A DNA stretch of 63,628 nucleotides, filler included. It is 11 parts of 11 records of this genome, joined end to end, with 100 filler letters (N's around TTAATTAATTAA, not from the genome) between each part and the next. Parts side by side here need not be neighbours in the genome. Positions count along the whole stretch, not along the records: positions 16,680 to 26,161 come from SRR7504441_9578; 10 more parts are not named here. One strand, written 5' to 3'. A program made the position numbers and the translations under genes. Shown here one piece after another: positions 21,768 through 22,779 of this stretch (its first letter is position 1; every line of letters starts with the position of its first letter). Under the pieces are notes generated by a model that worked only from the letters and a program-made list of their open reading frames with translations, was not told the DNA's origin and made no database searches.

Positions 21768-22779
21768 ATGCAAGCAGCCCTCCTCATCGCCTGTGCAATC
21801 GGACTGGCCTCGGCCGTCCCGGAGATCGCCCACCCGGCCGGCTCCGCCCAGATCAACGACCAGAGCCACATCGATTACCTCAACTCGCACAACTCGACCT
21901 GGAGCGCTGGAACCAACAAGCGGTTCGACGGCCTGTCGTACGACCAGGCACGCACTCTCCTCGGCACTCAGCTATCCCACATCTCGGAGCACATGGGAGA
22001 GACCCAGGACCAGTCTGTGTACGATTCGATGGCCGCTGTGGTCCCTGAGACCTTTGACGCCACGCAGCAGTGGGGTTCGCTCATTCACCCGATCCGCGAC
22101 CAGGCCCGCTGTGGCTCGTGCTGGGCGTTCAGCGCCGCGGAGGTGCTGAGCGACCGGTTTGCGATCGCGTCCAACGCGAGCAGCCCTGTGCTCTCGCCGG
22201 AGGACTTGGTGCAGTGCGACCACAGCGACATGGGCTGCAAAGGGGGCCGGCTGCCTGCGGCCTGGAGCTACATCACCAAGTCCGGGCTCGTGACTGACTC
22301 CTGCTCGCCATACACCAGCGGCGCAGGGGTGACCGGCACATGCACCCAGAAGTGTGCGGATGGCAAGTCCTGGAGTCCTTACAAGGCCAAGACTGCCTAT
22401 GCGATCAACGGTGTGGAGAACATGCAGAAGGAGATCATGACCAACGGACCGATTCAAGTCGCCTTCATGGTGTACAAGAGCTTCATGTCGTACAAAAGTG
22501 GAGTTTACCAGAAGCACTGGTACTAGAAAGCTGAATTAGAGCCCGGGGGGGCTCCTGAACATGACTATTTTCTTTTCTAGGTACGAGTTTCTGCCTGAGG
22601 GAGGCCATGCTGTCAAGATCGTGGGGTGGGGCACTGAGGGAGGTGTCGACTACTGGCTGGTTGCCAACTCGTGGAACACCACATGGGGTGACAAGGGCTT
22701 CTTCAAGATTCTTCGGGGTAAGAACCATTGCGGCATCGAGAAGAACGGCCCGCCCTACGCTGGCACTCCGGCTCTCTAG
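21768..22779 (+). CDS. Cathepsin B-like papain-family cysteine protease with signal peptide, apparently lacking the occluding loop; intron 22520-22580
   Basis: [16 protein letters not shown] signal; [34 protein letters not shown]. Confidence 0.95.
22523..22580 (+). mobile_element. Introner-like miniature element forming the cathepsin intron
   Basis: 7-bp TIR CTAGAAA...TTTCTAG flanked by direct repeat GTA (22520-22522 and 22581-22583). Only one copy seen. Confidence 0.5.

Follow-up and report, generated by a model that had tools for sequence, protein, structure and literature searches.

The cathepsin-B-like cysteine protease gene of an uncultured marine protist carries a genuine spliceosomal intron of 61 nt that is efficiently removed from its RNA. 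The geometry of this intron is exactly that expected from an element with terminal inverted repeats (TIR) that makes its own intron. Its anatomy was confirmed, as was its splicing; it is a good introner candidate, not yet a discovery. A first-pass annotation of the DNA had read it as an introner-like element. The anatomy, the exact splicing and the restored W-Y-E-F residues of the product stand, while neither a second copy nor an autonomous element was found in the 63.6-kb window. A gain of the intron by the protist lineage, within an otherwise intron-free coding sequence, forms part of the best explanation. Among the origins considered, birth from a short TIR-bounded insert is tentatively placed first, by a narrow margin over an ordinary intron with a chance repeat, and little weight is left to readings other than those given below; that this insert belongs to a true multi-copy introner family, a narrower claim counted within that origin, is unlikely.

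The window, i.e. the whole stretch of DNA analysed (63,628 bases), is composed of 11 bin contigs joined end to end by N spacers. The joints appear as 20 runs of 44 N, paired around a 12-mer (N44-TTAATTAATTAA-N44, at 12141-12240, at 16580-16679 and at eight further joints). The protease gene and its intron lie on the part covering positions 16680-26161. GC content per 2 kb varies from 0.51 to 0.69 across the window, so that the "typical introns" to which the first-pass annotation compared this one are drawn from contigs possibly differing in composition class. The gene and the elements of the intron are as follows:

21768..22519, plus strand: exon 1 of the cathepsin-B-like cysteine protease gene, an uninterrupted ORF from the ATG (250 codons plus the TG of a Trp codon)
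22519..22523, plus strand: left direct-repeat copy GGTAC, containing the GTA of the first-pass annotation and the donor GT
22520..22580, plus strand: spliceosomal intron, 61 nt, GT..AG, phase 2 within the Trp codon, GC 0.46
22523..22529, plus strand: left inverted-repeat arm CTAGAAA (repeat finder, 100% complementary)
22539..22554, plus strand: internal hairpin GAGCCC-GGGG-GGGCTC, arms 22539-22544 and 22549-22554, part of the minimum free energy (MFE) fold
22555..22566, plus strand: candidate branch-point region CTGAAC / ATGAC, 16-22 nt 5' of the acceptor, proposed from the letters
22574..22580, plus strand: right inverted-repeat arm TTTCTAG, which also closes the T-rich tract and supplies the acceptor AG
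22580..22584, plus strand: right direct-repeat copy GGTAC, comprising the last intron base and the first four bases of exon 2
22581..22779, plus strand: exon 2, stop codon included, with a Peptidase_C1 match

The gene spans from the ATG (21768) to the stop (22779). Exon 1 matches the Pfam profiles Peptidase_C1 (E 1e-41, profile positions 1-158) and Propeptide_C1 (E 2.2e-08), and exon 2 matches a later part of Peptidase_C1 (E 5.6e-21, profile positions 166-215). The nearest proteins in a large protein collection are the full-length P0001 and P0243 (98-99% identity). They are followed by P0002 (79-82%), P0003 (74%) and then by many proteins at about 55-65% identity, several of which carry the source name cathepsin B. 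The spliced product, which reads HWYEF, aligns without gap across the junction with 7/7 of the relatives examined, and W-Y-E-F is the commonest junction form among them. Within the coding sequence, the description of the intron as the only one of the gene is correct: the ORF is unbroken from the ATG to 22519 and matches the full-length relatives, and the RNA contigs of four runs exhibit no further joint inside the coding sequence. These contigs continue past the stop, to about 22852-22902.

Other genes were observed around this one. On the same contig, a 1,446-aa ORF (17094-21431, plus strand), rich in alanine and glutamine and including many charged residues, has no Pfam match and is covered in parts by RNA contigs. 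A minus-strand gene (22930-26161) is composed of two adjoining ORFs with a protein kinase domain (E 7.6e-18) and a weak match to the TIR_2 profile (26 bits, cut-off 28), which are joined by a predicted 46-nt intron (24233-24278). The GC3 of this gene (0.52-0.55) is much below that of the cathepsin and coiled-coil genes of the contig (0.73-0.75). Elsewhere in the window, two adjoining plus-strand ORFs (31295-36951) include REJ (E 1.2e-51), GPS and RING-variant domains. This domain content identifies a putative polycystin/REJ-like receptor with a RINGv tail, and an intron near 35460 probably divides what is a single gene into the two ORFs.

Splicing was tested by aligning Logan contigs from four RNA runs to the whole contig 16680-26161; the uncovered parts of the contig and the depth figures of the alignment were given no weight. 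One RNA contig in each of the runs X1 and X2, which come from two studies, skips exactly the 61 nt from 22520 to 22580, with GT..AG ends and an exon joint at exactly 22519/22581. The X1 contig carries at least 255 letters on the shorter side of the joint. Among the pieces listed, none is an intron-retaining RNA contig. The RNA contigs of X1 and X2, together with the gap-free alignment of the product with the seven relatives, bear out the earlier statement that splicing restores H-W-Y-E exactly.

A separate observation concerns the letters at the junction. RNA contigs that are 97-99% alike elsewhere differ in exactly the five letters of the direct repeat. These are GGTAC in the window, GGTGG in X8 (giving HWWEF, the same as P0001) and TCTGG (giving HFWEF) in X5 and in a second X2 contig; HFWEF is also present in the 74% relative P0003. 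The two junction residues are variable family-wide (WY, WW, FW, WN). The five-letter variation may correspond to a hypervariable aromatic dipeptide of the enzyme or to a mutational trace tied to the intron, the 97-99% lineages being known from RNA contigs alone, which are uninformative on their having the intron.

The 58-nt insert delimited in the first-pass annotation (22523-22580) lies, at these coordinates, inside the 61-nt intron. Its perfect 7-bp TIR (CTAGAAA/TTTCTAG) and its internal 6-bp hairpin (GAGCCC/GGGCTC) were both recovered by the repeat finder. With the intron borders marked by slashes, the junction reads CACTG/GTACTAGAAAGCTGAATTAGAGCCCGGGGGGGCTCCTGAACATGACTATTTTCTTTTCTAG/GTACGAG, or in short form CACTG/GTACTAGAAA...TTTCTAG/GTACGAG. 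The flanking GTA duplication is present, but the full direct repeat is GGTAC, of 5 bp and not just GTA; in a single copy, a target-site duplication (TSD) is indistinguishable from a fixed flanking motif. Two readings of the repeats have the same symmetry: a TSD GTA with a TIR CTAGAAA (3/7 bp), or a TSD GGTAC with a TIR TAGAAA (5/6 bp). The inverted repeat stops at 7 nt, the next outward pair being A opposite G. The heptamer CTAGAAA is rare in the window, with 3 occurrences on the plus strand and 1 on the minus strand. The donor GT lies inside the left repeat copy and the acceptor AG inside the right inverted-repeat arm, as had been proposed, in agreement with both the letters and the RNA joint. 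The intron shows three of the features that characterize introners: it is spliced, it has a TIR (at least 6 nt counting as clear) beside a TSD, and splice sites taken from the element and the TSD restore the mRNA. The feature by which an introner family is defined, namely several similar copies at unrelated intron positions of one genome, was not seen in the 63.6-kb window.

The main rival explanation is an ordinary spliceosomal intron, of possibly older origin, whose terminal 7-bp complementarity and boundary repeat are coincidental and aided by the constraints acting on splice signals. We consider this a serious possibility, itself short of an even chance. Among the GT..AG segments of 35-120 nt found on both strands of the window (n=36,334), the cathepsin intron is alone in combining a TSD of at least 3 with an abutting TIR of at least 7. 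Extrapolated from this count, the chance rate is about 2e-5 per random segment. It is higher for real introns, perhaps 1e-4 by our own estimate, because the right arm is at the same time a good pyrimidine tract followed by TAG, and because G/GT is favoured at both borders by the splice consensus. Even so, with a few dozen introns per window, the expectation stays far below 1%, which speaks against a coincidence. So does the position of the repeat arms, which occupy the very ends of the intron, immediately beside the direct repeat, as they would after transposition; this position counts for the TIR-insert origin. However, the intron was chosen from a scan of very many windows, so that some chance cases of this kind are expected, and looser versions of the pattern would also have been flagged in the first pass. 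Three other segments of the 36,334 reach a TIR of at least 6 with the same geometry, and a boundary direct repeat of at least 5 occurs in 0.71% of the GT..AG segments of the window; both observations favour an ordinary intron. The RNA fold, hairpin included, is not exceptional (MFE -16.7 compared with -13.07 +/- 2.7 for shuffles, z -1.34, 19 of 200 shuffles folding equally well). This again fits an ordinary intron and, together with a repeat of seven bp that is short for a TIR, counts against the TIR-insert origin. Matches with a TIR of at least 5 elsewhere in the window lie in open coding sequence, and no other candidate intron has the geometry. The other TSD plus TIR structures of the window were set aside, since they fall in open coding sequence or in GC-rich low-complexity DNA, in about chance numbers.

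Eight other predicted introns of the window, obtained by joining ORFs, are 36-46 nt long with GC 0.48-0.78 and a tail T fraction of 0.06-0.47, values that come from a hand-picked, RNA-unsupported set in which two members are without an open frame and several borders are possibly wrong. The corresponding values for the cathepsin intron are 61 nt, 0.46 and 0.59. The first-pass impression of a longer, more AT-rich and more pyrimidine-tailed intron is therefore plausible. Its length and T fraction exceed those of all eight predictions, which counts for the TIR-insert origin although the comparison set is RNA-unsupported. The predicted, RNA-unsupported intron 24233-24278 of the same contig has a similar GC (0.48), so that the composition of the cathepsin intron is not unique, which is in keeping with an ordinary origin. 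Ranking the ORF-joined introns by codon score gave unreliable borders, even the proven intron being mis-ranked.

The occurrence of a single copy in all the sequence searched also favours an ordinary intron. The TIR pattern CTAGAAA/TTTCTAG, with 30-90 nt between the arms, has a single match in the 63.6-kb window, the intron itself, and neither half of the insert, at up to 3 mismatches, has a match there other than itself. The best blastn-short match of the intron to the rest of the window is 11 nt long, a length that 59 of 100 shuffles also reach. The index of the scan contains nothing that resembles the 101 nt in which the intron is embedded. An exact 22-mer from the left half of the insert was found 0 times in viral_contigs and 0 times in genome_contigs, neither of which is expected to hold protist DNA. 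A Pfam transposase domain was detected in 0/29 long ORFs of the 63.6-kb window; the three long ORFs of the contig carrying the intron match a kinase, a TIR domain (weakly, under the Pfam cut-off) or nothing. This lack of a second copy or half-copy and of a transposase among the 29 ORFs was counted against the TIR-insert origin, as was the fact that no empty site was seen. Copies in the thousands, as in a very abundant family, are unlikely; a small family is possible. We know of no superfamily terminus matching CTAGAAA or TAGAAA.

Traces of a different kind were observed in the window. It contains twelve exact repeats in which 9 bp are followed by TA and by the same 9 bp (at 22874-22893 and at 4263, 4313, 4409, 4438, 6919, 10393, 10418, 38156, 46831, 46873 and 47065). 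The repeat at 22874-22893 lies about 100 nt 3' of the cathepsin stop codon, within the cover of the X1 RNA contig. Repeats with other middle dinucleotides are mostly the same scars moved by one base, or GC-rich simple sequence. Their cut-and-paste-like look may reflect the activity of DNA transposons in this genome. A search of the window for an intact element flanked by a 9-bp TSD found none; the one match with a TIR of 6 is GC-rich and chance-like. A link between these scars and the intron was considered and dropped, the duplication being of 5 bp in the intron and 9 bp in the scars, and the window holding no intact element with a 9-bp TSD.

A position shared with distant orthologues, which the first-pass annotation named, together with a single copy genome-wide, as contrary to its reading, was not seen. 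The full-length protein P0004 (69% identity, on a 9,429-nt contig) is uninterrupted, with no intron at the site. The same is true of the P0093 cluster (64%, contigs of up to 10,115 nt); the contigs of the two clusters measure 7.9-10.1 kb. The absence of the intron from these two relatives with genomic-size contigs argues against an ordinary intron. ORF fragments of other eukaryotes on long contigs start before GVY or GGHA, not between W and Y. From these sequence comparisons, the position is not conserved among more distant relatives, and a lineage-specific gain is weakly favoured; the absence fits such a gain, or losses in intron-poor relatives. A metagenome scan with the exon-1 protein identified 9 loci (contigs of 1,000-1,927 nt, 55-68% identity, GC 0.42-0.67). 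The alignment crosses the junction unbroken in eight loci; that of L009 is in two pieces, with a frame change far upstream. No locus is interrupted at the junction, none is DNA of the host species, and in one the contig finishes with poly-A. The nine probably represent cDNA from other organisms and are uninformative on genomic introns. In the protein collection, no ORF from the host species ends at the in-frame TAG of the intron or starts inside it.

Two short proteins of the collection depart from the usual sequence close to the junction. P0122 (79 aa, from a 568-nt contig) has a non-homologous N-terminus before YELLPEGG, with F preceding Y. This F misfits a phase-2 AG/G junction, and the cluster mate P0241 reads KKHWYEV. 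P0242 (65 aa, from a 636-nt ENA contig) belongs to the same 90% cluster as P0001. Its 57 C-terminal residues, from HAVKIV onward, match exon 2 of the window at all positions but one, and upstream of HAVKIV it reads MSRKIAGY instead of YEFLPEGG. In a near-identical strain, this difference could reflect an intron placed elsewhere, a deletion or an assembly error.

Repair of a staggered double-strand break, with GGTAC as the filled-in overhang, the 51-56 bp between its copies as filler and the inverted ends as incidental or as the result of filler snap-back, is an improbable origin: it accounts for the 5-bp direct repeat exactly at both junctions and for the single copy, but it offers no reason for inverted repeats abutting the duplication, and no source of filler was found in the window, where the best match (11 nt) is at shuffle level. 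Daphnia-type neointrons, which are ascribed to such repair, are bordered on each side by a short direct repeat of the insertion site, are single copy and are lineage-specific. The cathepsin intron resembles them in its boundary direct repeat, its single copy and its apparent lineage specificity, whereas the repair model predicts no terminal inverted repeat.

The birth of the intron from a short TIR-bounded insert can be outlined as follows. A non-autonomous DNA element, short (55-58 bp) and bounded by inverted repeats with CTAG at their ends, would have entered ...CACTG^GTAC^GAG... and duplicated 3-5 bp of the target. The left copy of the duplication would supply the donor GT, at the position where it is observed. 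The right terminus, TTTCTAG behind a T-rich run, would supply the pyrimidine tract and the acceptor AG, whose use is also observed. Splicing would then remove the element with one copy of the duplication and give back CAC TGG TAC GAG (H-W-Y-E), as found in the RNA. The arrival of the segment by transposition and its membership of a family are presumed. Its palindromic ends would be expected to yield the same T tract and AG acceptor in either orientation, and the element would need only a GT in the target duplication to become a clean intron.

The introner elements of Micromonas pusilla were reportedly first described by Huff et al. The first-pass annotation attributed the geometry of the cathepsin intron to the introners of Micromonas and Aureococcus, and the comparison holds for the first in its TSD and TIRs. 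Micromonas introner elements are described as having a 3-nt TSD with adjacent TIRs, and as taking one splice site from the element and one from the TSD (PMC11282704). The cathepsin intron is alike on these points, as well as in its putatively MITE-like and non-autonomous nature. However, the IE1 element is reported to bring the 5' gt/gc, the 3' AG coming from the TSD (PMC11282704), so that the supply of splice sites is the mirror image of that in the cathepsin intron; moreover, IE1 has thousands of copies versus one here. For Aureococcus sp., the introners are said to bring both splice sites with them and to add 12 bp (bioRxiv 10.1101/2022.06.06.494994), and in this respect the attribution does not stand.

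The introners of Symbiodinium microadriaticum are described with a 4-bp TSD and TIRs, the 3' site being carried by the element and the 5' site coming from the TSD (Gozashti et al., bioRxiv 10.1101/2022.06.06.494994, PMC9860276). The cathepsin intron shares the TIRs, a short TSD (3, 4 or 5 bp can be read here) and this origin of the two sites. It differs in that one copy is known here as against multi-copy families there, and in its host lineage, and the likeness is one of description only. The families of Gozashti et al. were kept when they comprised at least 4 similar introns; their copy numbers are given as 5 to over 2000, and their median lengths as 30-654 nt (bioRxiv 10.1101/2022.06.06.494994). 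The 58 nt of the present insert fall within this range of lengths, which counts for the TIR-insert origin. In Amoebophrya, introner elements are described with inverted repeats of 8-20 nt joining the intron ends and direct repeats of 3-5 nt over the exon/intron borders, and the same features are reported in 1% and 15% of the canonical introns of two strains (PMC7789003). The cathepsin intron likewise has inverted repeats at its ends and a direct repeat of 3-5 nt across its borders. In contrast, its inverted repeat of 7 nt is shorter than the 8-20 nt of Amoebophrya, and its borders are GT-AG, whereas those of the repeated Amoebophrya elements are mostly non-canonical. For Telonemia or Telonema, a search of the literature found no paper on introners or on the gain of introns.

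If the repeats are a coincidence, the cathepsin intron is an ordinary one, and it warns that short terminal repeats taken from very large scans cannot alone define an introner. A further reading, doubtful on present evidence, is that an ultra-short (55-58 bp) introner family, so far undescribed, is represented here by its first copy to be seen, and that its host belongs to a protist lineage from which introners have not been reported. Should such a family be real, the intron-generating transposons would gain a eukaryotic host lineage new to them, as well as a design that is unusually small and independent of orientation, and the gain of an intron would have been caught in the act, with RNA-proven clean splicing, in the gene of a highly expressed housekeeping protease.
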